A program made the position numbers and the translations under genes. A model generated the notes under the pieces. That model saw only the letters and a list, made by a program, of their open reading frames with translations, did no database searches and had not been told where the DNA came from. From an uncultured Alphaproteobacteria bacterium (GTDB taxonomy: Bacteria > Pseudomonadota > Alphaproteobacteria > HIMB59 > GCA-002718135), in NCBI GenBank assembly GCA_902582755.1, contig CACHSZ010000002.1:80151-144150 (forward strand): 64,000 nt of DNA, read 5' to 3'. Below, piece after piece: positions 13,663 to 37,028 of this stretch. Position 1 is the stretch's first letter. Each line of letters begins with the position of its first letter.

Positions 13663-13983
13663 ATGAATGATGAAATTGAACCAATCCTAGTTGGTGAAAC
13701 TGATGATATTGAAGTTGGAACTGTGGAGAGTTTTGAACATGACGATTTTAATTACGCGGTCTATCATTTAGAGCCAGGATTTTTTTGTACACAAGGAAAC
13801 TGTAATTGCGAGGAGAAAGCACCTTTAAGTGAATCTGAAATTGAAGGAGAAGAGTTAGAGTGTGTTGGTTGTGGTAATACTTATAGTATTGTTTCGGGTG
13901 ATTGTATTAGTGATCCTGAATTAGAGGGCCTTAAGATCTTTGACATCTCCGAAGAGGATGGAAATATTTACTTAAATATCTAA
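13663..13983 (+). CDS. acidic Cys-rich protein with Rieske-fold-like pattern (all-Cys variant)
   Basis: 106 aa. C47-N-C49-x17-C67-V-G-C70 reproduces the spacing of the Rieske CxH-x(15-17)-CxxH motif with both His replaced by Cys. The flanking pattern (LxCxxCGxxYxxxxGxxxxxP...LKxFxxxxxxGxIY) is Rieske-ferredoxin-like. Confidence 0.5.
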   Translation: MNDEIEPILVGETDDIEVGTVESFEHDDFNYAVYHLEPGFFCTQGNCNCEEKAPLSESEIEGEELECVGCGNTYSIVSGDCISDPELEGLKIFDISEEDGNIYLNI

Positions 13984-20821: not shown

Positions 20822-21973
20822 ATGAAAAATATTGGACTAATTGGTTGTGGTAATATTGCAGAAACTTATTTTAGAGCTCAGGAATATTTTAATAATATAA
20901 ATTTTGTAGCTTGTGCTGATATCAATTTAGATGCAGCTAAAAAAACAGCTGAGCAGTACAATATTGCAGCTCTATCAGTTGATGAAATATTAAATGACAA
21001 AAATGTAGACATTATTCTTAATCTCACAATCCCTCAAGCGCACTATGAAATATCGAAAAGAGCTCTTGAGGCAAACAAACATGTTTATTGTGAAAAACCA
21101 ATGAGTGTTAAATTTGATGATGCAAAAGAATTATTAAATTTAGCAAAAAAAAATAGCTTATATATTGGTAATGCCCCTGATACTTTTTTAGGAGGAGGAG
21201 GACAGCTTACTAGAAATTTAATTGATAATAATGATATTGGACAAGTTCTTACCGGGAATTTTATTTTTGCTTTTCCAGGTGTTCAAGATTTTCACCCAAG
21301 TCCTGAGTCTTGGTTTCAAGAAGGAGGAGGGCCTGTAATAGATATGGGTCCATATTTTTTTACAACACTTGTTAATCTTCTAGGTCCTGTAAAAAATATA
21401 CGAGGAAGAGGAGCAAAATTTTTTGATAAAAGAGAATACAAAGCTGGTCCAAAAAAAGGAGAAACCTTTAATGTTGATATCCCAACTTCTTATATGTTTA
21501 ATATTGAGTTTCAAAATAAAGCTATCATTCAAGGTTTCATTTCATTTGATGTTTTAAATCATAAACGTAATCATATGGAACTTTATGGAACGAAAGGTTC
21601 AATAGTAGTGCCTGATCCAAATATGTTTGGTGGTCCTGTATCTATATCTGGTGAGTTTGGATCTGAATGGAAAGATATCAGTGTCGAAGATAAACCCCTT
21701 GGAAAAACAAATATAGTTAACCATAGCGGTAGAAGTAATGAAGCGCCTGAACAAGCAAACTATAGGGGTATTGGCCTTGCTGAAATGATTGATGCAATAG
21801 AAAATAATAGAATGCATAGATGTAATGGAGAACTTGCTCTTCACGTTTTGGATGTCATCGAGTGTGCCATGATTTCTTCAATTTATAAAGTGGAGGTTGA
21901 ACTTCGCTCCTCATGCGTGAAGCCTGAACCCATGCATGATGATTTCATAAGGCAAATCCTTAAAAAAATATAA
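20822..21973 (+). CDS. Gfo/Idh/MocA-family NAD(P) oxidoreductase
   Basis: N-terminal Rossmann motif GLIGCGNIA and the EKP motif (CEKPMS). Clear paralog of 37028-38170. Confidence 0.85.
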   Translation: MKNIGLIGCGNIAETYFRAQEYFNNINFVACADINLDAAKKTAEQYNIAALSVDEILNDKNVDIILNLTIPQAHYEISKRALEANKHVYCEKPMSVKFDDAKELLNLAKKNSLYIGNAPDTFLGGGGQLTRNLIDNNDIGQVLTGNFIFAFPGVQDFHPSPESWFQEGGGPVIDMGPYFFTTLVNLLGPVKNIRGRGAKFFDKREYKAGPKKGETFNVDIPTSYMFNIEFQNKAIIQGFISFDVLNHKRNHMELYGTKGSIVVPDPNMFGGPVSISGEFGSEWKDISVEDKPLGKTNIVNHSGRSNEAPEQANYRGIGLAEMIDAIENNRMHRCNGELALHVLDVIECAMISSIYKVEVELRSSCVKPEPMHDDFIRQILKKI

Positions 21974-22084: not shown

Positions 22085-23050
22085 ATGAAAAAAATTGCTT
22101 CAATTATTCTTGCCTCTGTAGCGCTTTTTGCTACTTCAGCGAAGGCAGAATACAAATTTAACTTCGTAATGCACAGTGATACGAACAATGCTTTCTGGGC
22201 AGCTGTTCATAAAGGTTTTAAAGATGCTTGTGCACAAATTAATGCTGATTGCCAAATGTTAACTCTTTCAGGTGATGGAGATCAACAAGAGCAATTACAA
22301 AACTTAGAGTCTTCAATAGCTCAAGGTGTTGATGGTATCGTAACTACAATTACTAACCCAACTATCTTTGATGCTGCAGTTGATGAAGCATTAGCTGCTG
22401 GTATTCCAGTAATTACAGCTAATACTGATGATCCAGAAGGTGCTGCTGGTAGTAACAGACTAGCATATGTTGGACAAGACTTAGAAGCAGCTGGTTATGA
22501 ATTAACAGCTAATCTTTCTGAAATGTTTCCTGATGGAGATATTCACGTTTTAATCGGTGTTGCAGACATGAACCAATCATGGGCATACACTAGAGGAAAC
22601 GGTATTGCACGTTTCATGGAAGATTACAAAGCGGCTAACCCTGATAGAAAAGTAACTTATGAGAAAATCGAGTCAGGTCTAGATCTTTCAACTGTTGGAA
22701 ACAGAGTGGCAGCTTATGTTCAAGCTAACCCAAATACAACTGCATATCTTGATGTAGGTTTCTGGGAAGCTGGTGCGGCTGCAGCAGTAAGAAACTTAGG
22801 TTATGGACCTGGTGAAATTCTTCTTGCTGGTTTCGACTTAGTTGACGTAGTTTTCGAAGAAATGGACAAAGGTTATGTTCAACTAACAGTTGACCAACAG
22901 CCATACTACCAAGGTTACATGTCAGTTCACCAATTATACTTAATGAACAAGTATGGTTTAAGTGCACTAGATATCAATACTGGTAAAGCTATGATTGGTC
23001 CTGATGATGTTGAAACAATCAGATCATTCAAAGGAATGTCAGTTAGATAA
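22085..23050 (+). CDS. periplasmic sugar-binding protein (type I PBP)
   Basis: Signal peptide MKKIASIILASVALFATSAKA. Contains GVDGIV and LAGFD. AGGAGGA Shine-Dalgarno upstream. Confidence 0.85.
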   Translation: MKKIASIILASVALFATSAKAEYKFNFVMHSDTNNAFWAAVHKGFKDACAQINADCQMLTLSGDGDQQEQLQNLESSIAQGVDGIVTTITNPTIFDAAVDEALAAGIPVITANTDDPEGAAGSNRLAYVGQDLEAAGYELTANLSEMFPDGDIHVLIGVADMNQSWAYTRGNGIARFMEDYKAANPDRKVTYEKIESGLDLSTVGNRVAAYVQANPNTTAYLDVGFWEAGAAAAVRNLGYGPGEILLAGFDLVDVVFEEMDKGYVQLTVDQQPYYQGYMSVHQLYLMNKYGLSALDINTGKAMIGPDDVETIRSFKGMSVR

Positions 23051-23059
23051 ATATCTTAA

Positions 23060-23091
23060 CCAGGCTCTTTAAATAGAGCCTGGTTTTTTTT
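23060..23091 (+). terminator. intra-operon hairpin/terminator between the binding-protein and permease genes
   Basis: CCAGGCTCT-ttaaat-AGAGCCTGG (9 bp) followed by 8 T. Confidence 0.75.
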
Positions 23092-23105
23092 AAAATAAAA
23101 AAAAT

Positions 23106-24086
23106 ATGAGTAAAAATTATAGTCTTAGAAGTTTATTAGTAAGACCAGAAGTAGCAACTTTCTTAATGTTTCTAGCAATAATGATCGGATTTTATATTGC
23201 TAATGAAAGATTTTTAGATGCAAGAAATATAAGAATAGTTATGGGTATTACACCCGAATATATTATTGTTGCTATTGGGATTGCAATATTAATGATCTCA
23301 GGTGAATTTGATTTATCTGTAGGCTCTGTTTTTGCATTAGTCCCGATGACTATTGTGCAAATGGTGCATCAAGGGATACCACCTTGGTTCGCTATTTTTC
23401 TAGGATTAATGATTGGTATTATTGTTGGTTTTGTTAATGGATTTATTACCTTAAGATTTGGAATTCCTTCTTTCATAGCAACTCTTGGAATGCTCTATAT
23501 TGCTAGAAGTCTTACAACTGTAGCTACTGCAGGATTTCCACCACCATTTCCTCATATTTTACCAAATGAGTTATTCGTTTATCAATTTGAGTTATTTAGA
23601 GCTTCCTTGTACTGGGCTCTTTTAGTTGCCGTAGTTTTAGGTGTTATGCTTCACAGAAGTAATGTTGGTAATTGGATCTATGCAACTGGCGGAGATCAAA
23701 ACGCTGCATCTTCAATGGGAATAAAGACTGGAAACGTTAAAATGTTTTGTTTCATCTTATGTGGTTTCTTAGCTGGCTTTGCTGGAATGATTCAAACATT
23801 TAGATTGGAAGCACCATTACCATCTCAAGGATACTTATTAGAACTAGAGTCAATTGCTGCAGCAGTTATTGGTGGCGTCAGTTTATTTGGAGGTATCGGA
23901 ACAGTTTTTGGTGCCGTTATTGGCGCAATACTAATCAGGTTTTTAGAAAGTGGAATCATTATGGCTAGAATAGATGCTGAATGGTTTAGAGCAGGTTTAG
24001 GTTCTTTAATTATTATAGCCGTCGTGTTTAATACTTATATAAGTAGAAGAGCGACGCGAATTGGTCAAAACAAGGCAAAGGATTAA
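23106..24086 (+). CDS. ABC sugar transporter permease (RbsC type)
   Basis: Polytopic membrane protein with GGVSLFGGIGT motif. Homologous to 18716-19723. Confidence 0.88.
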   Translation: MSKNYSLRSLLVRPEVATFLMFLAIMIGFYIANERFLDARNIRIVMGITPEYIIVAIGIAILMISGEFDLSVGSVFALVPMTIVQMVHQGIPPWFAIFLGLMIGIIVGFVNGFITLRFGIPSFIATLGMLYIARSLTTVATAGFPPPFPHILPNELFVYQFELFRASLYWALLVAVVLGVMLHRSNVGNWIYATGGDQNAASSMGIKTGNVKMFCFILCGFLAGFAGMIQTFRLEAPLPSQGYLLELESIAAAVIGGVSLFGGIGTVFGAVIGAILIRFLESGIIMARIDAEWFRAGLGSLIIIAVVFNTYISRRATRIGQNKAKD

Positions 24087-24088
24087 AG

Positions 24089-24826
24089 ATGGAAGATATA
24101 ATAGTTTGTGAGGGTTTAAACAAATACTATTCAGGAGTTCATGCTTTAAAAGATTTAAGCTTAAAGATAAAAAAAGACTCTGTTGTTGGTCTTATTGGAG
24201 ACAATGGTGCTGGTAAATCAACATTAATTAAAATTTTATCTGGAGCACATCAACCTGATTCAGGTCATATATATTTTGAAGGTAATAAGGTTAAATTTAA
24301 ATCTACAAAAGAAGCAATGAATTTAGGCATTGAAACAATTTATCAGTATTCAGCTTTGATCCCTGAAATGTCTATTGCAAGAAATATTTTTATTGGACGT
24401 GAACAAACTCAATATAATGTTGGCAATTTTGGTTTGATGAAAACTAAAACCATGCAGGACGATGCTATGAAAGCATTAACAGATGTAGAATTGCATCTTC
24501 GATCTCCAGATACACCAGTTAACCAATTATCTGGAGGGGAAAGACAAGGTGTTGTCATTGCAAGAGCAATGTATTTTAAATCAAAAGTTTTAATATTAGA
24601 CGAACCAACAAACCACCTATCAGTAAAAGAAACAAATAAAGTACTAAGGTTTGTAGAAGGATTAAAAAGCCAAGGCGTAACATCAATATTTATTACTCAC
24701 AACTTGAGTCATGTGTATCCAATTGCTGATCATTTATGTGTAATGGCAAGAGGTGAAAAAATTGCTGATTTGGATAAAAAGGATACAACAATAGATCATC
24801 TCACTGATTTATTAGTAAATGGATAA
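24089..24826 (+). CDS. ABC transporter ATP-binding protein (CUT2 type, single NBD)
   Basis: Walker A GDNGAGKST, signature LSGGERQ, Walker B LILDEPT. Confidence 0.9.
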   Translation: MEDIIVCEGLNKYYSGVHALKDLSLKIKKDSVVGLIGDNGAGKSTLIKILSGAHQPDSGHIYFEGNKVKFKSTKEAMNLGIETIYQYSALIPEMSIARNIFIGREQTQYNVGNFGLMKTKTMQDDAMKALTDVELHLRSPDTPVNQLSGGERQGVVIARAMYFKSKVLILDEPTNHLSVKETNKVLRFVEGLKSQGVTSIFITHNLSHVYPIADHLCVMARGEKIADLDKKDTTIDHLTDLLVNG

Positions 24827-24840
24827 TTTTGGGAGGAATT

Positions 24841-25776
24841 ATGATTAGTGATGCGCAAATAAAACAATATAACCAAGAAGGTTATACGATCGTTGAAAAT
24901 GTTTTTAGTATGGATGAGTTAAATCCAATATTAAATGAATTTGAAGAAATTGTTGATGATTTTGCAGAAAAAGCTTTTCAAGCTGGAAAAATTACAAACA
25001 AACATGATGATAAAGATGTTTTTAAAAGACTAGCTGCTCTCGAAAGAGATTTTAAAGGTTCTTCAGTTTTAATTCATCATAGAGGTGAATTAAAACCAGC
25101 ACTTGCTAACTTATGGGGATCAAAAAAACTTTTAGATATGGTTGAAAATTGGGTTGGCAAAGATATTTCTGGTCATCCAGTTTGGAATATTAGATCTAAA
25201 ACACCTCAGACAGCTAGGATGACAGTTCCATGGCACCAAGATTCTGCTTATTTAAAAGATGGAGCAGAAAAAACCACTCAGCCTGCTGCGTGGATTCCAT
25301 TTCTTGATGTAAATAAACATAATGGATGCATGCAAGTTGTTCCTGGGGGACATAGACCTGAAAGAGTTTTGAATCATAAATTAGAAAAGAAAGATGGTTC
25401 AGTAAAAGATTCTTGGTATTTATTTATTGAAGACAAAGATATTCCAGAGGAGAAAGTTGTTACTTGTGAAATGAAGGCTGGTTCAGTTTTATTTTTACAT
25501 CAATTAGTTCCTCATCGATCACTTGAAAATTTATCTGAGGATGTAAGATGGAGTGTTGACCTAAGATTTCAAAATCCAAAAGATGAAGCTGGTTTTCATA
25601 CTGGTTTGGTTGATCCAATCATAATGAGAAAATCAGAAGACCCAAGCTATACAGCTGATTGGGATTCTTGGTTTAAAGGTTATGAAGAAGAACACACTAA
25701 ATTTAGAGGGACTTCAAAAAAAGACCAATTTGACTCCACAGTTGATGGGTCATGGTTAGATCGTTGGGATAATTAA
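24841..25776 (+). CDS. PhyH-family Fe(II)/2-oxoglutarate dioxygenase
   Basis: YNQEGYTIVENVF N-terminus, HxD triad WHQDSAY, NGCMQVVPGGH, and distal His in LVPHRS. The track TTG start at 24829 is actually the GGGAGGA Shine-Dalgarno; the ATG is at 24841. Confidence 0.8.
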   Translation: MISDAQIKQYNQEGYTIVENVFSMDELNPILNEFEEIVDDFAEKAFQAGKITNKHDDKDVFKRLAALERDFKGSSVLIHHRGELKPALANLWGSKKLLDMVENWVGKDISGHPVWNIRSKTPQTARMTVPWHQDSAYLKDGAEKTTQPAAWIPFLDVNKHNGCMQVVPGGHRPERVLNHKLEKKDGSVKDSWYLFIEDKDIPEEKVVTCEMKAGSVLFLHQLVPHRSLENLSEDVRWSVDLRFQNPKDEAGFHTGLVDPIIMRKSEDPSYTADWDSWFKGYEEEHTKFRGTSKKDQFDSTVDGSWLDRWDN

Positions 25777-25790
25777 TTTAATTATCAAGC

Positions 25791-26774
25791 ATGGAAGTTA
25801 ATCTCGATGATTGGTACAGACCAGAAGTCGACAGAAAAAAATTAAAAACCTTAAGTAAAAGAAGAGATCTACCTGGACTAATCCATTTCTTTTTTTATTT
25901 TTTATCTTTATTTGCATCAGGTTATCTAGCGTACCTAACTTTAGGAACTTGGTGGACATATTTGTTCTTTTTTATTTACGGTACAATTTACGCTTTTAGT
26001 GTAGCGAACTGGCACGAAACTGTTCATCGAACTGCTTTTAAGACACGTTGGATAAATGAATTTTTTTATCACATCAGTTCTTTCATGTGTGATTTTGAAG
26101 GATTTAGATGGCGTTGGAGTCATACTTTTCATCACTCAAAAACAATGCAAACTGAAGATGATTATGACCACGAAATACAAGTCTCAAGACCAATAGAACT
26201 ACTTGCATTTTTCTTAAATTTTATTCCTTTAACAGATTTATTATATCCACATAAATTAATTAAATTCGAAGTCTTAAAACATGCGTTTGGAAAATTTACT
26301 CCAGTTATTGATATAACTGCTCCAAAAGAAGAAAAGAAAAAAATTCTTTGGAACTCAAGATTGTATGTCTTTATTTGGGTATTAGTAATTGTATACTCTT
26401 TTTACATAGGTTCTTTCTTACCAATAATTTATATTATTTTACCAACTTATATTGGGAAACCAATTTGGTTTGCAGTTAATGTAACTCAACATCTGGCAGC
26501 AAAAGTTGACACAAAGGATCATCGTCTCAGCACATATTCTGTGAGAATTAATCCAGTTCTAAGTTTCCTATATTGGCACATGGAATACCATTTAGAACAT
26601 CATATGTTTCCAATGGTACCATCATATAATTTGAAGAAATTAAGAAAAGAAATTGATAACGAGTTGCCGAAGCCATTCACCAGTCTCTATGATTTTTATA
26701 AAAAAGTTTTACCAGCAGTTATTGCCTTAGCAACTGATCAAAATAAATATTATAAAGTAAATTTAAATAACTAA
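25791..26774 (+). CDS. membrane fatty-acid-desaturase/hydroxylase-family di-iron protein
   Basis: Three His boxes, HETVH (Hx3H), HTFHH (Hx2HH) and HLEHH (Hx2HH), plus several TM helices. Confidence 0.8.
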   Translation: MEVNLDDWYRPEVDRKKLKTLSKRRDLPGLIHFFFYFLSLFASGYLAYLTLGTWWTYLFFFIYGTIYAFSVANWHETVHRTAFKTRWINEFFYHISSFMCDFEGFRWRWSHTFHHSKTMQTEDDYDHEIQVSRPIELLAFFLNFIPLTDLLYPHKLIKFEVLKHAFGKFTPVIDITAPKEEKKKILWNSRLYVFIWVLVIVYSFYIGSFLPIIYIILPTYIGKPIWFAVNVTQHLAAKVDTKDHRLSTYSVRINPVLSFLYWHMEYHLEHHMFPMVPSYNLKKLRKEIDNELPKPFTSLYDFYKKVLPAVIALATDQNKYYKVNLNN

Positions 26775-26776
26775 AT

Positions 26777-27202
26777 TTACCAGGAACCAGAATTCTCCAT
26801 TGATTTCCAAGGTTCTTGTTCTGGTAAAGATTCTCCTTCTTGTAAGATTTCAATAGAAATCCCATCAGGTGATCGCACAAATGCCATATGTCCATCACGA
26901 GGAGGTCTGTTAATTGTAACACCATTGTCCATTAATTTTTGACACACATCATAAATATTACTAACACTATAAGCTAGATGACCAAAGTTTCTGCCACCAG
27001 AATATTTTTCTGGATCCCAGTTATAGGTTAATTCTAATAAACCAGTTTTTTCATCACTATTTTCAGCAGCTAAAAAAATTAGTGTAAATTTTCCTTTTTC
27101 GTTTTCAATTCTTCTAACTTCTTTTAGACCAAGTTTATTACAATAAAAATCAAGTGAAGCATCGACATTTTCAACCCTAACCATTGTGTGTAAATATTTC
27201 AT
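26777..27202 (-). CDS. gloA: lactoylglutathione lyase (glyoxalase I)
   Basis: HTMVRVENVDASLDFY N-terminus, ELTYNW and GHLAY. VOC-fold size (141 aa). Confidence 0.88.
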   Translation of the reverse strand: MKYLHTMVRVENVDASLDFYCNKLGLKEVRRIENEKGKFTLIFLAAENSDEKTGLLELTYNWDPEKYSGGRNFGHLAYSVSNIYDVCQKLMDNGVTINRPPRDGHMAFVRSPDGISIEILQEGESLPEQEPWKSMENSGSW

Positions 27203-27422
27203 TGAGAATAATTAACACTATAAATTATTTTTTTTCAATTATTATTTTATTTAAAAAATCCGAAAAAATTAATTTTAATAATTAATTCATTGATGAGTAT
27301 TAAAAAATGTAATTATTGCCAATAAATATCATTATTTTAAAAAATTTTAGATCTTAAAAATATTGTATAAATTTCTATATCCGCTAGATTAAATTCATTA
27401 TTTAAACATATTGGGAGGAAAA

Positions 27423-28718
27423 ATGAATATTTTAAATTTTGTAATTAAGAAAATTTACCTAATTACTTTATCTTTTTTTCTATCATTTGGTTTTATATCA
27501 AGCAGCTATGCGATTGATATAACGATTTGGGATTTAAGTGGTAGAAATGGTCAGGATGAATTTTATGATAATCTTAACAAGGAATACAAAAAAATTAATC
27601 CTGATGTAAATATAATTTTACAAACATTTGAAAATGAAGCTTACAAAACTCAAATTCAAGTAGCCTTAAATGGTAATGATGGACCGGATGTATTTTTTAA
27701 CTGGTTTGGAGAAGATAGTGCTCGTTTAGCAAGAGCGGGATTAGCATTAGATATCACTCCTTACGCAAATGTTGAGGGTGGCTACGGTAATTACATAAGT
27801 GAAGGATTATCAAATACAACAGCTGTTAATGGTAAAATATATGGAGTTCCAAATACTTCAGTATCAAAATATTTTCACTATGACCCTGCTTTTTTTGAAG
27901 CAAATAGTTTGGAAGTTCCAAAAACATTTGATGATTTATTAAATCTTTGTAAAGACATCAGAGCAATTGATTCCTCAATTGTTCCATGGCCTCTAGGAAA
28001 CTCAGAAAGATGGAAGCTTAATCACGTTATAACTATGTTAAACCAAAGAGTTGTAGGTGAAGAAAATACTGCGGCAGATTATAACTTATCTGCATCAGAA
28101 GATGAGTTATTTACTAACCCAGCGTATGTTGAGGCTTGGCAAAAAGTTGTAGATCTGCAAGATGCAGGTTGTTTCCAAGATGCTCCAAACGCTACACATC
28201 CAGATCTAACAAGATCAATGTTTGCATCACAAATTTCACCAATGATTTATTGTGGTACATGGTGTGGAGGTATCTTTAATGGTGAAGGTTTTTCTGACTT
28301 TAGCTATTTTAGATTCCCAGAAGTAGTTGGTGGTGCTGGTGCAGCAACTGTAGGTTTCTTAGTTCCATCAGGTATGATGGTATCAGCAAAAACACCTCAT
28401 CCAGAAATTGCAGCACATGTTGCCTCGTTTATGGTTTCAGATGATATGGCATTGCAAGCAGCTGAACTAATGGGTTTCATGCCTTCTAATCCAACAAAAA
28501 TTGGCGAAATGAGTAATCCAACTCATTGGTTTAATTTTTATGTTAATGATATTGCAGACAAAACAGGTCATGTAAATGTTTTGGATGTTTTATTAGAAGC
28601 TAATGTTTCAAATGCTTATCTTGATATGGGTACTGAAATTCTAAATAGAACGAAGACTCCACAAGAAGCTATGGATTTTATTAGGCAGGTTGCTTTAGAA
28701 GCTAAAGCAGCGATGTAA
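27423..28718 (+). CDS. ABC transporter extracellular solute-binding protein, family 1 (CUT1 sugar type)
   Basis: Signal-peptide-like N-terminus ending SSSYA. About 430 aa, the size and composition of MalE/UgpB-type binding proteins. The track TTG at 27411 lies in the GGGAGGA Shine-Dalgarno; the ATG is at 27423. Confidence 0.85.
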   Translation: MNILNFVIKKIYLITLSFFLSFGFISSSYAIDITIWDLSGRNGQDEFYDNLNKEYKKINPDVNIILQTFENEAYKTQIQVALNGNDGPDVFFNWFGEDSARLARAGLALDITPYANVEGGYGNYISEGLSNTTAVNGKIYGVPNTSVSKYFHYDPAFFEANSLEVPKTFDDLLNLCKDIRAIDSSIVPWPLGNSERWKLNHVITMLNQRVVGEENTAADYNLSASEDELFTNPAYVEAWQKVVDLQDAGCFQDAPNATHPDLTRSMFASQISPMIYCGTWCGGIFNGEGFSDFSYFRFPEVVGGAGAATVGFLVPSGMMVSAKTPHPEIAAHVASFMVSDDMALQAAELMGFMPSNPTKIGEMSNPTHWFNFYVNDIADKTGHVNVLDVLLEANVSNAYLDMGTEILNRTKTPQEAMDFIRQVALEAKAAM

Positions 28719-28728
28719 ATATTTTATT

Positions 28729-28762
28729 AATTTCGGCTATTTCTTAATAGCCGAAATTTTTT
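28729..28762 (+). terminator. intra-operon hairpin/terminator after the binding-protein gene
   Basis: 13-bp stem AATTTCGGCTATT / AATAGCCGAAATT with loop tctt, running into a T-rich tract that ends at the permease ATG. Confidence 0.7.
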
Positions 28763-29668
28763 ATGAACAAAAATAATACACAAACAAATATTTTTTCTTT
28801 GTCAAATGACAAAGTATCAGCCACTATACTTCTTGTACCGGCTTTAATATTTTGTACGATTTTTATCTTTATTCCTGCCATTGGTACAATTGTAGGATCA
28901 TTTTATAGCTACAGCCTTACCTCAATGAACAATTGGAAATGGGTTGGCTTTGGGAATTACGTTCAAGCAACGCAGGATGAATATTTTTGGGTAGCGTTGA
29001 AAAATAACTTTATAATAGTTTTTGCTTCTATTGTTCTTCAGGTAGGTGTTGGAACAATTTTAGCAGCAATTCTTGATCGAGGAATAAAATATGGAAGGGT
29101 AATTTTTCGAACCATAATATTTACTCCAATGGTCATATCATCAGTTGCAGTGAGTTTAATTTGGTTAATAATCTATGACCCAAATGTTGGTATATTAAAT
29201 GCTATCTTTAAATCTATTGGTTTATCAACACCGTCTAAGGGGTGGTTAGGAGATCCTAATATTTCAATTTGGATGATAATGATAACAGCTGCATGGCAAA
29301 ATACAGGGTTTATGATGGTCTTAATTCTTGCTGGTCTGCAAGGAGTTTCTAAAGAGGTGTATGATGCAGCTGAAATAGATGGTGCAACTGGAGTTAAAGC
29401 TTTTTGGTATATTACGCTTCCAATGATTAGAAATGTTTTGATTGTTGCAATTTTGATAACAACCATAGGGGCATTTAAAGTTTTTGAATTTATTTTTGTA
29501 TTTACTCAAGGAGGGCCATCCAATGCAACTCAAGTTTTAGGTACTTACATTTATTTACAAGCATTCAATTTGCTACATATGGGATATGCTAATGCATTAT
29601 CCGTAATACTTCTTTTAATCGCATTATTTTTGGGATGGTTACAACTTAAATCCAGCAGGAAAGCTTAA
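28763..29668 (+). CDS. ABC sugar transporter permease (MalF/UgpA type)
   Basis: Six TM segments. EAA-loop region EVYDAAEIDGATGVKAFWYITLP. Confidence 0.88.
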   Translation: MNKNNTQTNIFSLSNDKVSATILLVPALIFCTIFIFIPAIGTIVGSFYSYSLTSMNNWKWVGFGNYVQATQDEYFWVALKNNFIIVFASIVLQVGVGTILAAILDRGIKYGRVIFRTIIFTPMVISSVAVSLIWLIIYDPNVGILNAIFKSIGLSTPSKGWLGDPNISIWMIMITAAWQNTGFMMVLILAGLQGVSKEVYDAAEIDGATGVKAFWYITLPMIRNVLIVAILITTIGAFKVFEFIFVFTQGGPSNATQVLGTYIYLQAFNLLHMGYANALSVILLLIALFLGWLQLKSSRKA

Positions 29669-30486
29669 TGAGTAGATTTAAAATAGCAAACATAATAGCT
29701 TATGGTTTTGTAACACTGTTTAGTATTTATGTTTTAATGCCAATTTTAGTAATGGTATTAACAACATTTAAATCTAAAAGAGAAATTTTTTTAGAACCTT
29801 TAGGATTGCCTGGTCAATTTGGCTTATCTTCATTTGAAAGAGCTCTAACTGTAGGGCTTGGCAGTTTCATGTTAAATTCTTTTATTGTATCTTTTTTTGC
29901 TGTTTTTTTAATTGTTACCATTTCAGGAATGGCAGCGTATGTACTATCAAGAATTGATTTTAAAATTAATAAATATGTTTATTTACTAATAGTAGCAGGT
30001 TTTGCAATTCCACCTGCTGCAGTGCTTGTTCCTTTATATACGATGGTTTCAAACTTAAATTTATTAAACAGTTTATTTGGGGTTATCATGCCTCTAACTG
30101 CATTTGGTATTCCTTTTACTGTTATACTTTTTTATGCTTTCTTTTTAGACTTTCCAAAAGAAGTAGAAGAGGCAGCTACTATTGATGGTTGTACAAAACT
30201 TCAAATTTTTTTTAGAATTATTGTACCTCTTTCTGGACCAGTCATTGCAAGTGCTGCAATCTTCCAAACTGTTTGGATTTGGAATGAATTTTTATTAGCA
30301 TTAATAATGCTAACTTCAGACGACTTCAAAACTTTGCCTATAGGTCTTTTAAAACTAAGAGGAGAGTGGGCATCTGATTGGGGGGCGATTATGGCAGGAC
30401 TTACAATAGCCGTAATTCCTGTGTTAATAGTATTCCTAATATTCCAAAAGTATTTTGTTAGATCATTGGCAGGGTTAGGAAAATAG
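29668..30486 (+). CDS. ABC sugar transporter permease (MalG/UgpE type)
   Basis: EAA loop EVEEAATIDGCTKLQIFFRIIVP. TAATG overlap with the preceding permease. Confidence 0.88.
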   Translation: MSRFKIANIIAYGFVTLFSIYVLMPILVMVLTTFKSKREIFLEPLGLPGQFGLSSFERALTVGLGSFMLNSFIVSFFAVFLIVTISGMAAYVLSRIDFKINKYVYLLIVAGFAIPPAAVLVPLYTMVSNLNLLNSLFGVIMPLTAFGIPFTVILFYAFFLDFPKEVEEAATIDGCTKLQIFFRIIVPLSGPVIASAAIFQTVWIWNEFLLALIMLTSDDFKTLPIGLLKLRGEWASDWGAIMAGLTIAVIPVLIVFLIFQKYFVRSLAGLGK

Positions 30487-30500
30487 TATAGGTTTATTTT

Positions 30501-30779
30501 ATGGCAAAAAGACAAAAGGTTTTAGTTCTCTATTTAAAGTTTCCTAGTTTAGAGGCTGAAGTCATTTCTTGGGCTACTTTTGATGGTACAGGAAAAAAAC
30601 TACATATGACTGGTGATAGTGATGAGCCCCCTTATCCAACAGGTCTTGATGCACTATTAGATGGTTGGAGATTATTTCAATCGAGCCAAGCTATTCCAGA
30701 ATATCCAGGTCAAGAATTTAGAACATCATATTTAAAACATGAGTTCTTTTTTGAAAAATTAGAAGAAGGAGATTTTTAG
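30501..30779 (+). CDS. hypothetical 92-aa protein
   Basis: ORF packed between the permease (14-nt gap) and the dioxygenase (1-nt gap). Non-repetitive, mixed composition. No domain recognised. Confidence 0.5.
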   Translation: MAKRQKVLVLYLKFPSLEAEVISWATFDGTGKKLHMTGDSDEPPYPTGLDALLDGWRLFQSSQAIPEYPGQEFRTSYLKHEFFFEKLEEGDF

Positions 30780-30780
30780 T

Positions 30781-31701
30781 ATGCCAAAATTATTAACTAC
30801 AGAACAAATGGCAGAATTTGCCAGCAGTGGATGTCTATTTTTTGAGGAACTAATTGATGAACAAACTAATAAAGAATTTTTAGACGATATTGGTCATACC
30901 AGTGTAGAAAATGTTGAGAGTGTTCAAACATATTTTGATAATATAAAGTCAACTAGCAGCATTCCAAGAATACCAGCTGGAACTCCACTTAAAGACTCGT
31001 ATCCTAAGAATTCACCTCTTGAAAAAATTTTAAAAAATGAGGTTGTAGATGGAGCAATAAAAAGCTTAGTTGGATCTAATCCACTTGTAGATCACCAGGC
31101 TCTTCATTTAACTTTTCCAACTAAATATTTCAAAGGAGCCAATCAAAGACAAATGTCTCAACAAAATCATCAGGATAGCACTATTGATCCAAGATCTACA
31201 TTTGACATTCAGGTTTTCTATTTTCCAACCGAGGTAACAAAAGAAATGGGAGGTACAAGATATCATCCTGGAACTCATTTACGAGTTGTTAATGAGTTTG
31301 GTATTGCAAAATATCAGAATATTAAAGGCCAAAAGAGTATTGTTTGTAAACCAGGCACAGTTGGAATATTTCATAACGGATTGTGGCATGGCGCAGGTGT
31401 GAATTTCTCTGAAGAAATTAGATATATGTTTAAAGTAAGGTTACAACCAACAGAGAAACAAGAATTATTATGGGATCCAGAAAAAAAATATCAGCCCTTA
31501 CCAAATAGAGCACTTTATTGGTCTGATGAAGTTAAGGAAGTAACCATCAATGATATTTTAATGAGGTCCTATCCTTGGCAAGAAGCAGATACAAATAGAC
31601 TTGATAAAATAAATGTTGTCAAGTTTTGGAGGTTATTAACTGGTCACAAGAAAATGGATGTTGACTATTGGCTTACAAGAATTGAAAACGAATTATATTA
31701 A
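30781..31701 (+). CDS. PhyH-like Fe(II)/2-oxoglutarate dioxygenase (divergent)
   Basis: LTTEQMAEFASSGCLFF N-terminus, HxD in NHQDSTID, GGTRYHPGTH, and distal His in GLWHGAGVN. Confidence 0.7.
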   Translation: MPKLLTTEQMAEFASSGCLFFEELIDEQTNKEFLDDIGHTSVENVESVQTYFDNIKSTSSIPRIPAGTPLKDSYPKNSPLEKILKNEVVDGAIKSLVGSNPLVDHQALHLTFPTKYFKGANQRQMSQQNHQDSTIDPRSTFDIQVFYFPTEVTKEMGGTRYHPGTHLRVVNEFGIAKYQNIKGQKSIVCKPGTVGIFHNGLWHGAGVNFSEEIRYMFKVRLQPTEKQELLWDPEKKYQPLPNRALYWSDEVKEVTINDILMRSYPWQEADTNRLDKINVVKFWRLLTGHKKMDVDYWLTRIENELY

Positions 31702-33206
31702 TTGAAATTTCTTTCATCACCTTTAAATGGAACAACATCACATGTTTCTTGGTACCATGAAAGCATTTTTTCTTTTAAGTTTTTAAGCTCTAATGCATAT
31801 TGTGGATCGTCAATAACATTATTAATTTCTCCAGGATCTTCAATTAAATTATAAAGTTCATCTTTTTCGTAAGCTCTTTTTATATATTTAAATTTTTTAT
31901 TTCTGCACATTGTTGCTTTGGTGTGCATTAAAATTTCATCCTCTTTACTTTGTAAGTTTACTCTTGGAAAATATAAGCCATGGGGTAAATTTAAACTTTG
32001 ACTTTCATTTGCTTGTCTCTCTAATCTAAGCCTGCCACCTTCTGTAAATACTTCTTCTCTATGATTATCAGTTTTCTGTTCTATAAAATTTTTAATACTT
32101 TTGCCAAAATGCCAATATGAAGGATTGATATTACTGTAATCATATATTGTCCCAGCAATATCAATTAATTCTATCATTGTGTCACTTATACCATTTAATG
32201 TATTTTTACTTTTTGGTGGTTTAATTACAAGAGGTACATTCGTAAGACAATCCTGAAAAGTATTTTGTGTTTTTTCCACCAAATTGTAATCACCTGTAAA
32301 GTCACCATGATCAGATAAAAAAATTATTAAAGTATCGTCATACAAATTACTTTCTTTAAGTTGATTGACTAAAAGTCCAAATTGATAGTCTACTCTTGAA
32401 CACATACCAAGATATACCGCTCGCAATTCATTCCAACGTTCATCAGTCCAATCTTGCATTCTTTGTCCATCCATTATTCCTTTTAAAAGACTTGGCTTGT
32501 CCTCCCATGTTTTGTATTGATATCTGTTAGGTATCAAATTTCTATCAATTGAAGAGAACCATGGATCCTCAACACAGTAAGGGGGATGCGGATAACCAAG
32601 TGGTAGAAATAAACAGAATGGTTTTTCTTTTTTATAATCTTTTATGAAATCTAATGCTCCATAAACCATGGACCAATCATCATCAAAATAAATATCCTTA
32701 TCTTTTTTATCTAATTTTCCTTTAAAGAAACTATAATAATTATCTCCATCTTTAGGCCCTCTCCATGATAGATCTCCACCATGTGTACCTGGTTGTTGAG
32801 TGTAATTCCATTTTTTAAAATCTCTATCAGTTGGTTCAAAATAAATATCACAATGATTACGATATCCTTCCTGACCTGCTATTAAATCATTTTTTCCACC
32901 CCACCAAATAAAGAAATCATCATCTTTTAGCTCTGATAAAATACTAGAGTCACCCTGATCTGTATGTAACATATAATGCATTGTTCTATGACCATGAACA
33001 TGTGGATACCATCCAGTCATAAATGAACAACGACTTGGTGTACAAACTGTTGCTTGGCAAAAAGCATTCTTAAATGCAATTGCATCTTCTTTAATAATAT
33101 TATCTAAATTAGGAGTTTTTGCACCTGGATATTCTAGATATCCGAGCATATCTCCTCTCCACTGATCGGGGTTAAAAATAACAATATTCGGTTTTTTCTG
33201 GTTCAT
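31698..33206 (-). CDS. Cys-type sulfatase (S1 / alkaline-phosphatase superfamily), no signal peptide
   Basis: Formylglycine motif CTPSRCSFMTGWYP. Metal ligands are present in NPDQWRGD and LSDHGDF. The catalytic fold starts at about residue 6 (PNIVIFNPDQ). Confidence 0.88.
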   Translation of the reverse strand: MNQKKPNIVIFNPDQWRGDMLGYLEYPGAKTPNLDNIIKEDAIAFKNAFCQATVCTPSRCSFMTGWYPHVHGHRTMHYMLHTDQGDSSILSELKDDDFFIWWGGKNDLIAGQEGYRNHCDIYFEPTDRDFKKWNYTQQPGTHGGDLSWRGPKDGDNYYSFFKGKLDKKDKDIYFDDDWSMVYGALDFIKDYKKEKPFCLFLPLGYPHPPYCVEDPWFSSIDRNLIPNRYQYKTWEDKPSLLKGIMDGQRMQDWTDERWNELRAVYLGMCSRVDYQFGLLVNQLKESNLYDDTLIIFLSDHGDFTGDYNLVEKTQNTFQDCLTNVPLVIKPPKSKNTLNGISDTMIELIDIAGTIYDYSNINPSYWHFGKSIKNFIEQKTDNHREEVFTEGGRLRLERQANESQSLNLPHGLYFPRVNLQSKEDEILMHTKATMCRNKKFKYIKRAYEKDELYNLIEDPGEINNVIDDPQYALELKNLKEKMLSWYQETCDVVPFKGDERNFN

Positions 33207-33286: not shown

Positions 33287-34537
33287 ATGAGATTAATAAA
33301 ATTATTTTTAAGTGTCATTTTTTTGTTAGGGATATCATTTAACGCCAATGCAGTAACAATCAAATGGCTTGGATTGGCACAAGATGACTCTGCGCATAAA
33401 GAAGACATTGATGCAGCAATTGCTGATTGGGAAGCAAAAACTGGCCATGAAGTTAAGTGGCAGTATATGGCTGGTCCAGACTTAAAACTAAAATTACCTA
33501 CAATGTTGCAAAGTGACGATGCTCCACATTTATTTTACAGTTGGGGTGGAGGAGTTATGTTTGATCAAGCTGATGCTGGATTTTTACAAGACATTTCTGC
33601 TTTAGTTCCAGATAGTTATTTAGAAAATTTAAGTCCTGCAGCAGCAGATGCTTTTACATACAAAGGTGAAAGAGTTGGTCTGCCAAATTTATTTAACCAA
33701 GTAGTATTTTGGTACAACAAAGATTTAACTGAAAAAGCAGGAGTTGATCCTTCAAAGGTTGTTATGTGGAACGATCTTCTAGAAGTAGTAAAAGATATAA
33801 AAGATGCTGGCATAACACCAATTTGTGTTGGTGGTAAAAATAAATGGCCTATTCATTTCTATTGGACACTACTCCATGTAAGAAATGGAGGCAAGGCAGC
33901 TTTCTTTGACGCTTTAGAAAATGGCGGATGGGATAGAGAAGAATACATTAAATCTGGATATGAATTCCAACAGCTTGTTGACCTTGAGCCTTTTCAAGAT
34001 GGTTTTATGGCAGTTGAATATGGTGATGCTTCAGCAGCATTTGGTAATGGAGAGTGTGCTCTTCACCTAATGGGAAGTTGGGATTACAATGGTGCTAAAA
34101 GAAGAAGTACTTCTGGGGAAGGAATTCCTGATGATAGAATGGGAACATTCCAATTTCCTATGACTGAAAATGGAAAAGGAAATCCTTCAGATACACTTGG
34201 TGGAATTAATGGATGGTTAGTTTCTAAAAATGCACCAAAAGAAGCAGTCGATTTCTTAATGCATTATATCTCAATGAAATATCAATCAATGGGAGCAAAA
34301 AGTGGAGCGTATATGCCTATTTATAAAGGAGCTGAAACAGAAATGGGTAACAGATTCTTTAAACAGCAAGCGCTTAATGTTGCAAACTCAACCTTCCATT
34401 CTATTTTCTGGGATCAATATCTTGGAAGAGATATTGGTGAGGTTGTAAACGATGTTTCAGTTGAACTAGCAACTAAAGACATCACTCCAGAAGAAGCTTG
34501 TCAAAGAGTACAAGAGGCTTGGGAGTTTAATCAATAA
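33287..34537 (+). CDS. ABC transporter extracellular solute-binding protein, family 1 (CUT1 sugar type)
   Basis: Signal peptide MRLIKLFLSVIFLLGISFNANA. 416 aa. GGGAGGA Shine-Dalgarno upstream. Confidence 0.85.
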   Translation: MRLIKLFLSVIFLLGISFNANAVTIKWLGLAQDDSAHKEDIDAAIADWEAKTGHEVKWQYMAGPDLKLKLPTMLQSDDAPHLFYSWGGGVMFDQADAGFLQDISALVPDSYLENLSPAAADAFTYKGERVGLPNLFNQVVFWYNKDLTEKAGVDPSKVVMWNDLLEVVKDIKDAGITPICVGGKNKWPIHFYWTLLHVRNGGKAAFFDALENGGWDREEYIKSGYEFQQLVDLEPFQDGFMAVEYGDASAAFGNGECALHLMGSWDYNGAKRRSTSGEGIPDDRMGTFQFPMTENGKGNPSDTLGGINGWLVSKNAPKEAVDFLMHYISMKYQSMGAKSGAYMPIYKGAETEMGNRFFKQQALNVANSTFHSIFWDQYLGRDIGEVVNDVSVELATKDITPEEACQRVQEAWEFNQ

Positions 34538-34546
34538 ATATCAATT

Positions 34547-34572
34547 AGAGGGGCAAATAATTTTGCCCCTCT
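34547..34572 (+). terminator. GC-rich hairpin after the binding-protein gene (attenuator or mRNA stabiliser; T-run displaced)
   Basis: 11-bp stem AGAGGGGCAAA-taat-TTTGCCCCTCT. The nearest T-run starts about 12 nt downstream, so it is not a textbook terminator. Confidence 0.5.
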
Positions 34573-34594
34573 CTATAAAAGTTATTTTTTTTGA

Positions 34595-35491
34595 ATGATA
34601 AAGAAAAACATCACATCTGCATTTGTTGAAAAATATTCCACAATAATCATTTTTTTAGTTCCAGCATTAACTTTATTTACTGTTTTTGTTGTTATGCCAA
34701 TTTTTGAAGCAGCTTATTTTAGTTTCTATCGGTGGAATGGAATGGGACCACCAGAAAAATATGTTGGATTTAAAAATTATGCTTTTTTATTTAAAAACGG
34801 AATTTTTTTAAATGCTCTGAAAAATAATTTTTGGATTATTTTTGTCTCACTCTTTATCCAATTACCCTTTGCGTTATTTCTAGCTCTTTTTTTAGCAAAT
34901 AATTTTAGGGGAGCAGCTATATTTAGAAGTTTATTTTTCTTACCATATATTTTAGCTGAAATTGTTGCCAGTTTGATTTGGGTTTATATTTACAAAGGAG
35001 ATTATGGATTAGTTGGTGCAATTTGGGGTTTGTTTGGAGCTGATGCGCCTTGGATTACTGCAGATAAAGAGTGGGCATTGACAGCTATACTAATAGTTGT
35101 CGTTTGGAAATATTTTGGAATACATATGATGATTATGATTTCAGGTCTTCAAGGTATATCTAAAGAAGTAATTGAAGCTGCAAAAATTGATGGTGCTGGA
35201 CCAGTAACAACTGCTTTAAGAATAAAAATTCCGATTTTGTGGCCAACAATTACTCTATCTATATTTCTTTCAACGCTCGGAAGTTTACAGCTATTTGATT
35301 TAATTATGCCTTTAACAATGGGAGGTCCATCAAATGTTACTCACTCAATGGTTACTTATTTGTACGATTTTGGTGTTGGAAGAATGAGACTTGGTTTTGG
35401 AAGTGCCATTAGTGTGGTAATTTTTATAATATGTTTTGTTGTTGCTTTAATTTATCAAACAACAATTTTAAAAGATAAAGGATATAACTAA
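34595..35491 (+). CDS. ABC sugar transporter permease (MalF/UgpA type)
   Basis: EAA loop EVIEAAKIDGAGPVTTALRIKIP. Six TM segments. Confidence 0.88.
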   Translation: MIKKNITSAFVEKYSTIIIFLVPALTLFTVFVVMPIFEAAYFSFYRWNGMGPPEKYVGFKNYAFLFKNGIFLNALKNNFWIIFVSLFIQLPFALFLALFLANNFRGAAIFRSLFFLPYILAEIVASLIWVYIYKGDYGLVGAIWGLFGADAPWITADKEWALTAILIVVVWKYFGIHMMIMISGLQGISKEVIEAAKIDGAGPVTTALRIKIPILWPTITLSIFLSTLGSLQLFDLIMPLTMGGPSNVTHSMVTYLYDFGVGRMRLGFGSAISVVIFIICFVVALIYQTTILKDKGYN

Positions 35492-36315
35492 TGCAATCAA
35501 AATTATCAAAATTTTATATGTATCTTTTCTTAACTTTCTTAGCAGGAATAATTTTAGTACCTTTATACTTAACTTTTATAAGTAGCTTTAAAACTTTAGG
35601 TGATTTAAGTTCTAATGTTATTGGATTGCCAAGAGAGTGGATTTTATCAAATTATACAGATGTTTTTGGTATGGAATATTTTTGGTCATTTGCCTGGAAT
35701 TCACTTGTATACGGAGTCTTAACAACAGTGTTAACTTTAATTTGTGCATCTATGGCAGCATTCGTATTCGCTCATATTAGATTTTTTGGAAATAGATTTT
35801 TATTTAATTATTTGTTGATTGGGTTAATGTTCCCTTTTGCCTCTGCAATCATTCCTTTATTTCTAAAGGTAAGAGATTTTGGATTACTTGGAACTTATTG
35901 GGCAGTAGTTTTACCTCAAATTGCATTTGGTCTTGGTTTTGCTATTTTACTTTTTAGAGGTTTTTTCAAACAAATACCACCAGAATTATTTGATGCCGCA
36001 TACGTTGATGGTTGTAATTATTCAAATTTCTTTTTCCGAATAACTATCCCGCTATCTGTTCCAATTTTCTCTACTGTAGCAGTTGTAACTTTTGTAACAA
36101 GCTGGAATAATTATCTACTTCCATTAATTATGGTTAGTAATGAGGAGTTATACCCTTGGCCTATGGGTATAATGTTTTTTAGAGGTGAGTATGACACAGA
36201 TTGGTCAATGGTTCTAACTTACGTTTCTTTAACATTGATACCTGCAATAGTATTTTTTCTTTTAGCTCAAAAATACATCATTGCTGGACTTACTGGTGGA
36301 GCAGTAAAAGAGTAA
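35491..36315 (+). CDS. ABC sugar transporter permease (MalG/UgpE type)
   Basis: EAA loop ELFDAAYVDGCNYSNFFFRITIP. TAATG overlap upstream. Confidence 0.88.
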   Translation: MQSKLSKFYMYLFLTFLAGIILVPLYLTFISSFKTLGDLSSNVIGLPREWILSNYTDVFGMEYFWSFAWNSLVYGVLTTVLTLICASMAAFVFAHIRFFGNRFLFNYLLIGLMFPFASAIIPLFLKVRDFGLLGTYWAVVLPQIAFGLGFAILLFRGFFKQIPPELFDAAYVDGCNYSNFFFRITIPLSVPIFSTVAVVTFVTSWNNYLLPLIMVSNEELYPWPMGIMFFRGEYDTDWSMVLTYVSLTLIPAIVFFLLAQKYIIAGLTGGAVKE

Positions 36316-37028
36316 TGCTGAAAGAAAATGAAGTAAAATTCTATAATCAAAATGGTTATTTAATTTTAAAGGATAAATTGGACAAGGAGACATTGTCAGA
36401 CTTAAAAAATTCAACGACTCAACTGATAGAAGAATTTAAAAAAAACCAATCAACTTTTATAAGAGATAAAAATAGAAATATATCTAAGCATGGTAAAATG
36501 TTTTTATCTAATCGTTGTGAAGATTTTCCTTTGATGGAAAAATTCACTAAGGGTAATTTTGTTAAATCTATTTGTAGGTCAATATTAGGTGAAAAAATTT
36601 ACTTATTTAATGAACAAGTAGTAAATAAGGAGCCACAAACTGAAAGTAAATTTGCGTGGCATCAAGATTCTGGTTATGTAGGACATGATCATAAGGTATA
36701 TCTATCTATTTGGATTGCTTTATGTGATACAAATGAAAATAATGGAGCATTAAGAATATTGCCAATAAATCTAGAAAGAGAAGCTAAGATTGAAGAACAT
36801 GTTTGGTCCGAACAATCATCAGATTTAAGTATGAAAGTTCAGGAAGAGAAGTCAATTTCGTGTACAATTGAGGAAGGTGGATTAGTCTTATTTTCGAGTA
36901 GAACACCTCATGCTTCTTTTCCAAATAAATCAAACAAAAACAGACCAGCATATTTATGTCAGTACTCATCTGAGCCAATTATACCTCCGCCCGGTTCAAA
37001 TAAAAAATTTAGAGCAGAGTTAATTTAA
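36315..37028 (+). CDS. PhyH-family Fe(II)/2-oxoglutarate dioxygenase
   Basis: FYNQNGYLILKD N-terminus, HxD in WHQDSGYV, and distal His in TPHASFPN. The start is at ATG 36315 (TAATG overlap); the track start 36201 lies inside the permease gene. Confidence 0.8.
   Translation: MLKENEVKFYNQNGYLILKDKLDKETLSDLKNSTTQLIEEFKKNQSTFIRDKNRNISKHGKMFLSNRCEDFPLMEKFTKGNFVKSICRSILGEKIYLFNEQVVNKEPQTESKFAWHQDSGYVGHDHKVYLSIWIALCDTNENNGALRILPINLEREAKIEEHVWSEQSSDLSMKVQEEKSISCTIEEGGLVLFSSRTPHASFPNKSNKNRPAYLCQYSSEPIIPPPGSNKKFRAELI

Follow-up and report, generated by a model that had tools for sequence, protein, structure and literature searches.

We analyzed a 64,000-nucleotide (nt) stretch of AT-rich DNA (G+C about 30%) from an uncultured Alphaproteobacteria bacterium (contig CACHSZ010000002.1, positions 80,151 to 144,150), called the window below. 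Five genes between 22085 and 26774, all on the forward strand, encode in order the substrate-binding protein (SBP2), permease (perm2) and ATPase (ATPase2) of a CUT2-type ATP-binding cassette (ABC) importer, a PhyH-family Fe(II)/2-oxoglutarate (2OG) dioxygenase (PhyH1) and a member of the FA_desaturase superfamily. Sequence comparison assigns the last of these to the branch of membrane di-iron oxygenases that contains MocD, the rhizopine oxygenase of rhizobia, and not to the acyl-lipid desaturases. An earlier reading of the same DNA, the original prediction, had noted a PhyH dioxygenase and a three-His-box protein lying 14 nt apart directly after a CUT2 ATPase, and open reading frames (ORFs), Pfam matches and gaps all agreed with that description.

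The spacing within the block is tight, with 2 nt between the permease and ATPase genes and 14 nt both between the ATPase gene and PhyH1 and between PhyH1 and the MocD-like gene. The PhyH1 ORF could begin at 24829 or 24841, and the likely start is 24841 because the ATG there is preceded by a Shine-Dalgarno sequence, GGGAGGA. Given this spacing, the four genes downstream of the SBP gene are probably carried on one transcript. The block contains a single hairpin followed by a T run, located after the SBP gene; as a pattern match only, it looks like an attenuator or terminator. Promoter-like matches occurred at background level (32 found, 35 expected) and were not used as evidence.

Family assignment of the two oxygenases

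The MocD-like protein passes the Pfam model PF00487 (117.5 bits against a gathering score of 29.7) and is 36-37% identical to the MocD proteins of Agrobacterium and Sinorhizobium meliloti over 98% of its length. The match to Agrobacterium MocD covers 320 residues at 37% identity (E 2e-68, 206 bits), and that to S. meliloti MocD (L002:8923-10008; loci used for comparison are numbered with the prefix L) runs end to end at 36%. Searching plasmids by tblastn returned 281 records, with Rhizobium and Sinorhizobium contributing most of them; the matches are full-length, at 36-42% identity (all below 60% identity, with at least 80% query coverage). On pSymA of S. meliloti T073, the matched gene adjoins a regulator that passes the MocR model (NF052281, 764 bits against a cut-off of 650); MocE (TIGR02377, 184 against 136), ferredoxin-NAD reductase, PanB-like and PurU genes follow on the 3' side, and IolE-like, IolG-like and sugar-binding-protein genes lie upstream. 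Because both the MocR and MocE models are passed, this locus is a genuine moc (rhizopine catabolism) cluster and the matched gene is mocD. The match in Agrobacterium NZ_CP139999 is likewise followed by a 'MocE family 2Fe-2S ferredoxin', a flavin adenine dinucleotide-dependent oxidoreductase, a PanB-like gene, purU and folD.

The three histidine boxes HETVH, HTFHH and HLEHH were found exactly as the original prediction had read them. All eight of their histidines, together with Q233-H234 and D243-H244-R245, are invariant in an alignment that includes rhizobial MocD, the boxes being compared across 15 sequences. Kyte-Doolittle analysis showed one strong hydrophobic stretch (residues 189-222), and a low-confidence structural model contains an aromatic-rich helical stretch (residues 26-78). 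Scores against curated models fell far below their cut-offs for DesB (NF052549, 43.3 bits against 500), DesA (NF052548, 21.9 against 500), CrtR (NF045688, 21.8 against 475) and GntB (22.5 against 380). The AlkB family was absent from the NCBIfam matches of the protein, and PDB sequences, AlkB included, gave no match at E up to 1. Model scores and gene context rule out a housekeeping lipid desaturase, in line with the suspicion raised in the original prediction, and a carotenoid hydroxylase or ketolase is ruled out by score.

Looking up the exact protein sequence in the assembly collection gave no match, and the comparison was made with relatives. Species-representative genomes, when scanned, yielded at least 589 related stretches. 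We examined the best 75 loci, nearly all of them from single-cell genomes labelled uncultured Alphaproteobacteria and one labelled Pelagibacteraceae, which points to SAR11 for the related loci and, with them, to a SAR11-type genome as the source of the window. The original prediction had proposed classifying the His-box protein phylogenetically, and when 104 family members were placed in a neighbor-joining tree, the SAR11 paralog clusters, all 10 of them, grouped in a single clade whose sister clade contains MocD of S. meliloti and Agrobacterium. Among 1.84 billion representative proteins searched, 2267 relatives reached E<=0.001 but only 94 reached E<=1e-30, with MocD representatives inside the close group. 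The ratio of nonsynonymous to synonymous substitution rates (dN/dS) of the MocD-like gene is 0.03-0.09, and 0.03-0.05 against many orthologs at synonymous divergence (dS) up to 2; the gene is under strong purifying selection.

PhyH1 passes PF05721 with 107 bits against a threshold of 22 and retains the HxD...H triad (H132, D134, H225) and the 2OG-binding Arg236, all invariant in 19 homologs. Its predicted structure is a good model, with a predicted local distance difference test (pLDDT) score of 82. A Foldseek search with this model returned PtlH, proline hydroxylase H11, SyrB2, PHYHD1, EctD, SnoK/N and EvdO2 (probability 1.0, TM score about 0.5), all generic hydroxylases of the family that did not narrow the substrate range. 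PhyH1 shares its fold, triad and 2OG-binding arginine with PtlH, H11, EctD, PHYHD1, SnoK/SnoN and EvdO2, several of which act on polar small molecules or sugars, but its identity to them is just 14-20%. The named PhyH equivalogs all stayed out of reach, the best being the PtlH-type model (41.9 bits against 550), with ectoine hydroxylase at 27.2 against 336.5. With a dN/dS of 0.04-0.13, PhyH1 too is under strong purifying selection.

Conserved linkage and electron donors

We next mapped the window proteins onto the compared loci, followed by profile searches, and obtained 65 orthologs of the MocD-like protein at 66-97% identity. In 55 of these 65 loci a PhyH gene lies directly upstream on the same strand, and in three more a single gene intervenes. 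Among the 55 pairs, in which the ortholog is at least 81% identical, an ATPase gene is directly upstream in 48, the whole SBP-permease-ATPase set is present in 46 and a glyoxalase-like gene follows downstream in 53. The co-occurrence in other genomes that the original prediction had suggested looking for is thus present, and the pairing of two different O2-activating iron enzymes behind a CUT2-type importer is genuine. Neither of the observations that the original prediction had held to count against it, acyl-lipid desaturase orthology and a lack of conserved linkage to the PhyH or ABC genes, was made. A PhyH gene is also found 5' of two sub-lineages of a paralog with 58-62% identity (L007/L008; L076-L083).

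Some loci depart from this arrangement. Between the PhyH and MocD-like orthologs of L058, L059 and L080, a 330-residue ORF without an NCBIfam match lies on the opposite strand (for example L059:8945-9937, minus). Within the window itself, divergence jumps at the junction of the two genes (about 25776-25791): compared with L009, L013, L016 and L026, dS is 0.02-0.11 for PhyH and 0.56-0.81 for the MocD-like gene. This suggests that the junction is a recombination boundary and that the MocD-like allele in the window differs from that of its closest relatives.

Homologs of the CUT2 transporter, at 41-57% identity, lie near the MocDEF genes of Caballeronia, where the SBP is 41% and the permease 50% identical to its counterpart in the window. 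The best NCBIfam match of SBP2 is a rhizopine-catabolism SBP (98.5 bits against a cut-off of 420). Upstream of SBP2, in the window as in most orthologous loci, is a Gfo/Idh/MocA-family dehydrogenase gene (GFO1), whose best NCBIfam matches are levoglucosan and inositol 2-dehydrogenase, both far under cut-off; GFO1 is probably the downstream dehydrogenase of the module. On the other side, the glyoxalase I-like gene is convergent with the MocD-like gene and 2 nt from its stop codon, a conserved neighbor whose role in the module is putative. The coordinates of these features are collected in Table 1.

Table 1. Features of the importer-PhyH-MocD-like block and related genes, in window coordinates
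Feature	Position	Strand	Basis
Rieske-fold protein, 106 residues, CxC...CxxC replacing CxH...CxxH (ORF 13663)	13663..13983	+	PF00355, 24.5 bits
IolD-like gene	15046-16890		TIGR04377, 769 bits vs cut-off 715
Gfo/Idh/MocA-family dehydrogenase (GFO1)	20822..21973	+	PF01408, PF22725
Periplasmic sugar-type substrate-binding protein, CUT2 importer (SBP2)	22085..23050	+	PF13407
GC-rich hairpin and T run after SBP gene	23058..23085	+	11-bp stem, 6 GC pairs
ABC permease (perm2)	23106..24086	+	PF02653
ABC ATPase (ATPase2)	24089..24826	+	PF00005
PhyH-family Fe(II)/2OG dioxygenase (PhyH1)	24841..25776	+	PF05721, E 1.9e-30
MocD-like membrane di-iron oxygenase (predicted), FA_desaturase superfamily	25791..26774	+	PF00487, E 1.1e-33
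His box 1, HETVH, residues 75-79	26013..26027	+	H75, H79 invariant, rhizobial MocD included
His box 2, HTFHH, residues 111-115	26121..26135	+	H111, H114, H115 invariant
His box 3, HLEHH, residues 267-271	26589..26603	+	H267, H270, H271 invariant
Glyoxalase I-like gene	26777..27202	-	TIGR00068, 116 bits vs cut-off 120

Gene neighborhoods and domain fusions reveal which electron donors the MocD-like family uses. All four cultured relatives (L001, L002, L090, L091) have the gene order MocD-MocE-MocF. Among the marine loci, the 73% identical ortholog of L064 is directly followed by genes for an HcaD-like reductase and a MocE-like ferredoxin (126 bits), to which the PhyH ortholog is convergent, and L059 carries MocE/MocF-like genes in an island that also bears the PhyH/MocD-like pair. 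Natural fusions join the MocD-like FA_desaturase domain to a Rieske domain (five proteins), to a Rieske domain and an FNR-type reductase (one) or to rubredoxin and rubredoxin reductase (two; the eight proteins are P0362, P0369, P0370, P0379, P0384, P0404, P0414 and P0490). These neighbors and fusions show, at the level of gene organization, that a Rieske ferredoxin supplies the electrons in this family, with rubredoxin taking that role in a more distant branch.

The original prediction had held that the His-box enzyme requires an external donor and that none is encoded nearby, and this was borne out: tblastn across the 64 kb detected no MocE-like or MocF-like gene, and the scanned window ORFs include no rubredoxin. 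Beyond the Rieske-like ORF 13663, Pfam scans of flanking ORFs picked out just a Flavin_Reduct protein (7687-8289, minus strand). The same arrangement without donor genes is found in about 35 species-level genomes. The donor for the enzyme in the window must therefore be encoded elsewhere in the genome or be unconventional. We also considered PhyH1 as a stand-in for MocE/MocF and ruled this out; 2OG dioxygenases do not donate electrons, and both L059 and L064 carry PhyH in addition to MocE/MocF.

The carbohydrate island

The block forms part of a flexible island bounded by an LldD/IolD-like block and xylA-ribF-ileS. In other genomes the same island can hold as many as five MocD-like paralogs, at 40-55% identity, and PanB-like genes often lie beside them. 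Five paralogs lie in a single island in L060 and L061, indicating strong local expansion of the family in some SAR11 genomes. The PanB-like genes, paralogs of 3-methyl-2-oxobutanoate hydroxymethyltransferase, flank MocD-like genes in L003, L010-L012, L047, L058-L064 and L076-L083 and recur in the rhizobial moc clusters L001 and L002, where purU and folD follow; in SAR11 and rhizobial clusters alike they score under the cut-off for true PanB. Their products may capture a one-carbon (C1) unit on tetrahydrofolate. C1 genes (PanB-like, PurU, FolD) adjoin orthologs of the PhyH/MocD-like pair itself in L003, L047, L058, L059 and L080.

The window contains three modules in which an ABC importer is followed by a PhyH-family dioxygenase (22085-25776, 27411-31701 and 33287-37028). 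The importer of the first is CUT2-type and those of the second and third are CUT1-type; these last two modules are separated by a sulfatase gene (31698-33206, minus strand), and Gfo/Idh/MocA and ThuA genes come after the third. PhyH enzymes appear to be a recurrent first-step tool of the island. The called TTG start of the third PhyH ORF (36201-37028) overlaps the permease gene (35491-36315) by about 115 nt, and its true start is probably further downstream.

At 10863-13602 an SDR gene is grouped with genes for an FAH-type hydrolase and an LldD-like dehydrogenase, and the best match of the hydrolase is 2,4-didehydro-3-deoxy-L-rhamnonate hydrolase (389 bits against a cut-off of 500). Together they resemble the final part of a non-phosphorylative pathway for a 6-deoxyhexose (rhamnose or fucose), with lactate as a product. 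Upstream of the island, an HNH endonuclease gene (4525-5079) lies amid housekeeping genes (COQ7, DsbB, SufE, GalT/GalE-like).

Proposed function and its alternatives

What might a MocD-like oxygenase do behind a sugar-type importer? We lean, with guarded confidence, towards a module that oxidatively tailors a methylated cyclitol or sugar after import, likely by O-demethylation. The importer would take up a cyclitol or sugar that is water-soluble and decorated, with O-methylation as the most plausible decoration. The MocD-like enzyme would hydroxylate the decoration with O2 and two electrons from a Rieske-type ferredoxin and reductase encoded elsewhere in the genome; for an O-methyl group, hydroxylation would give a hemiacetal from which a C1 unit is released. 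PhyH1 would carry out another oxidation, independent of the first, either on the same substrate or on its product, and the stripped sugar or cyclitol would then pass into dehydrogenase-based catabolism through GFO1 and the IolD-like gene product.

O-demethylation is favored because of the MocD precedent, the recurrence of C1 genes in two distant lineages and the abundance of methylated sugars in marine dissolved organic matter (DOM). MocD is described as the rhizopine oxygenase that converts 3-O-methyl-scyllo-inosamine (3-O-MSI) to scyllo-inosamine (SI) (PMC2593844), mocDEF is a rhizopine-induced operon (PMC10107442), and marine high-molecular-weight DOM is rich in methylated and 6-deoxy sugars (PMC4817625). 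The original prediction had supposed that the substrate might be amphipathic, on the grounds that a lipid desaturase is not an obvious partner for a sugar-binding-protein system. An amphipathic or lipid-like substrate is unnecessary, since MocD, the nearest relative, is reported to convert a water-soluble cyclitol and its clusters contain the same kinds of gene (sugar-type SBP, Gfo/Idh/MocA).

Several observations weigh against the proposed mechanism. Identity to MocD is just 36-37%, so that the substrate and even the reaction type may differ, and to our knowledge MocD itself has been defined genetically, not enzymatically. The neighbor-joining tree carries no support values, and the structural model of the MocD-like protein is poor (pLDDT 62), with Foldseek giving two marginal, uninformative matches to chains of the chloroplast Ycf2-FtsHi complex. 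The window is devoid of MocE-like, MocF-like and rubredoxin genes, as described above, as well as of PanB-like genes, and its inositol genes amount to the IolD-like gene, with no full inositol pathway. PhyH1 homologs outside SAR11 (47-56% identity) are not adjacent to FA_desaturase genes, and PhyH genes are missing from all four cultured MocDEF clusters; the PhyH/MocD-like pairing is therefore real but lineage-specific.

The alternative that survives best, although we consider it unlikely, is that the MocD-like protein hydroxylates a C-H bond of the imported sugar or cyclitol without demethylation, for example at the C6 methyl group of a 6-deoxyhexose or on a C-methyl cyclitol, with PhyH1 adding a second hydroxyl. 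The superfamily includes the terminal-methyl hydroxylases AlkB and XylM, the window has a 6-deoxyhexose pathway tail but lacks a PanB-like gene for C1 handling, and the 6-deoxy sugars in marine DOM are plentiful (PMC4817625). These points are countered by the assignment of MocD, the nearest named relative, to the conversion of 3-O-MSI to SI, and by the recurrence of PanB-like, PurU and FolD genes beside family members in both rhizobia and SAR11.

A second alternative concerns the donor. Where MocE is lacking, the protein encoded by ORF 13663 might serve as dedicated donor of the MocD-like enzyme, as a rubredoxin-like carrier of Rieske fold or as an all-Cys [2Fe-2S] carrier. It is the sole small Fe-S-type ORF in the 64 kb, as the original prediction had pointed out; its best NCBIfam match is the MocE family (TIGR02377), it is 32-33% identical to marine MocE-like proteins, and the FA_desaturase family accepts Rieske and rubredoxin donors. 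However, it reaches only 35.6 bits against the MocE cut-off of 136.15. Alignment with four MocE proteins sets its CNC...CVGC against CTH...CPxH, so that both cluster histidines are replaced by cysteine, a change kept in all eight aligned SAR11 members. From its sequence, the site could hold an all-Cys [2Fe-2S] cluster, a rubredoxin-like center or Zn in a Rieske scaffold; a literature search on Cys-ligated Rieske proteins found nothing. The SAR11 family to which it belongs comprises 353 database clusters, and nearly all of the members listed are 106 residues long.

Gene context also separates ORF 13663 from the MocD-like gene, which is 12 kb away beyond other operons, and there is no reductase gene adjacent to the ORF. 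In six independent loci (L084-L089), its homolog follows SDR, FAH-type hydrolase and LldD-like flavin mononucleotide dehydrogenase genes in fixed order, with a divergent 2-hydroxyacid dehydrogenase gene and an IolD-like gene coming next, and none of the six has an FA_desaturase gene within 10 kb. This fixed context shows that ORF 13663 travels with the LldD-like operon and not with MocD-like genes. It is probably outside the module, and its product is possibly a redox partner of the LldD-like enzyme. As a donor candidate for the MocD-like enzyme it is thus weak, and we regard this role as improbable.

There is a slight chance that the protein instead desaturates or hydroxylates a lipid or an amphipathic compound, be it a membrane lipid, a glycolipid head group or a sugar that carries an acyl or alkyl group. 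The protein is a Pfam FA_desaturase member with hydrophobic segments, and its best NCBIfam match by name is the Delta(10) desaturase DesB. The DesB score of 43 bits against a cut-off of 500 nevertheless compares poorly with the 206 bits of the pairwise match to MocD, and a gene that sits in a flexible carbohydrate island, with as many as five paralogs at one locus, does not follow a housekeeping pattern. Further points against a lipid substrate are that the linked sugar-type importer is also found near Caballeronia MocDEF and that the family works with Rieske ferredoxin partners. That the MocD-like gene is a decaying remnant after loss of its MocE/MocF partners, as the missing donor genes might imply, is very improbable given its low dN/dS, its intact catalytic histidines and the retention of the same donor-less arrangement in about 35 species-level genomes.

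With oxidative tailoring of a methylated sugar or cyclitol as the preferred reading, comparison with known systems shows both likeness and difference. MocD of the MocDEF system of S. meliloti and Rhizobium leguminosarum aligns with the MocD-like protein over its full length, with identical His boxes and further conserved residues. MocDEF systems and the window alike have a sugar-type SBP, a Gfo/Idh/MocA dehydrogenase and inositol-type genes, and marine relatives in the same island share MocE-like and MocF-like partners with MocDEF. In the window, by contrast, the adjacent MocE/MocF and the PanB-like, PurU and FolD genes are absent, the ORFs scanned in the region include no MocR-type regulator (unlike the mocCABR context), and PhyH1 is directly upstream, as it is in none of the four cultured clusters. 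The protein also differs from rhizobial MocD in being part of a SAR11 radiation of its own, which comprises at least 10 paralog clusters.

Other oxygenases offer more distant parallels. Hydroxylases of the AlkB/XylM type belong to the same superfamily as the MocD-like protein, have the same eight-histidine di-iron motif and likewise depend on a small electron carrier of the Fe-S or Fe(Cys)4 kind. Their substrates are hydrophobic, however, while the MocD-like gene lies in the context of a sugar importer. GntB, the guanitoxin L-arginine gamma-hydroxylase, sets a precedent for an FA_desaturase-superfamily enzyme acting on a free, water-soluble metabolite instead of a lipid, although it is very remote by score from the MocD-like protein. 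In marine Bacteroidota, a cytochrome P450 with ferredoxin and reductase demethylates 6-O-methyl-D-galactose and releases formaldehyde (PMC6292453, PMC9400963). The likeness of this system to the proposed role is a functional analogy only, that of O2-dependent sugar O-demethylation with a ferredoxin and a reductase: it is a haem P450 encoded in polysaccharide utilisation loci of Bacteroidota, whereas the window encodes an unrelated membrane di-iron family in another context.

In the literature library that we searched, no paper describes a SAR11 MocD-like/PhyH module. On a bolder view, which we regard as a long shot, the SAR11 MocD-like set with its PhyH and PanB-like genes would be an unrecognized demethylation route for DOM sugars and cyclitols that feeds C1 units into folate-linked oxidation, with the donor-less variant supplied by ORF 13663 as a new kind of carrier.

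SAR11 is the most abundant heterotroph of the surface ocean and has a known appetite for C1 units, and methylated and 6-deoxy sugars are a major, slowly degraded share of marine DOM. If these modules do remove decorations from sugars or cyclitols, they would provide a concrete enzyme system for the turnover of this material, tied to the use of C1 units by SAR11. The assignment to the MocD branch corrects a misleading 'fatty acid desaturase' annotation on hundreds of marine genes, and it shows that the MocDEF type of oxygenase reaches well beyond rhizobia.

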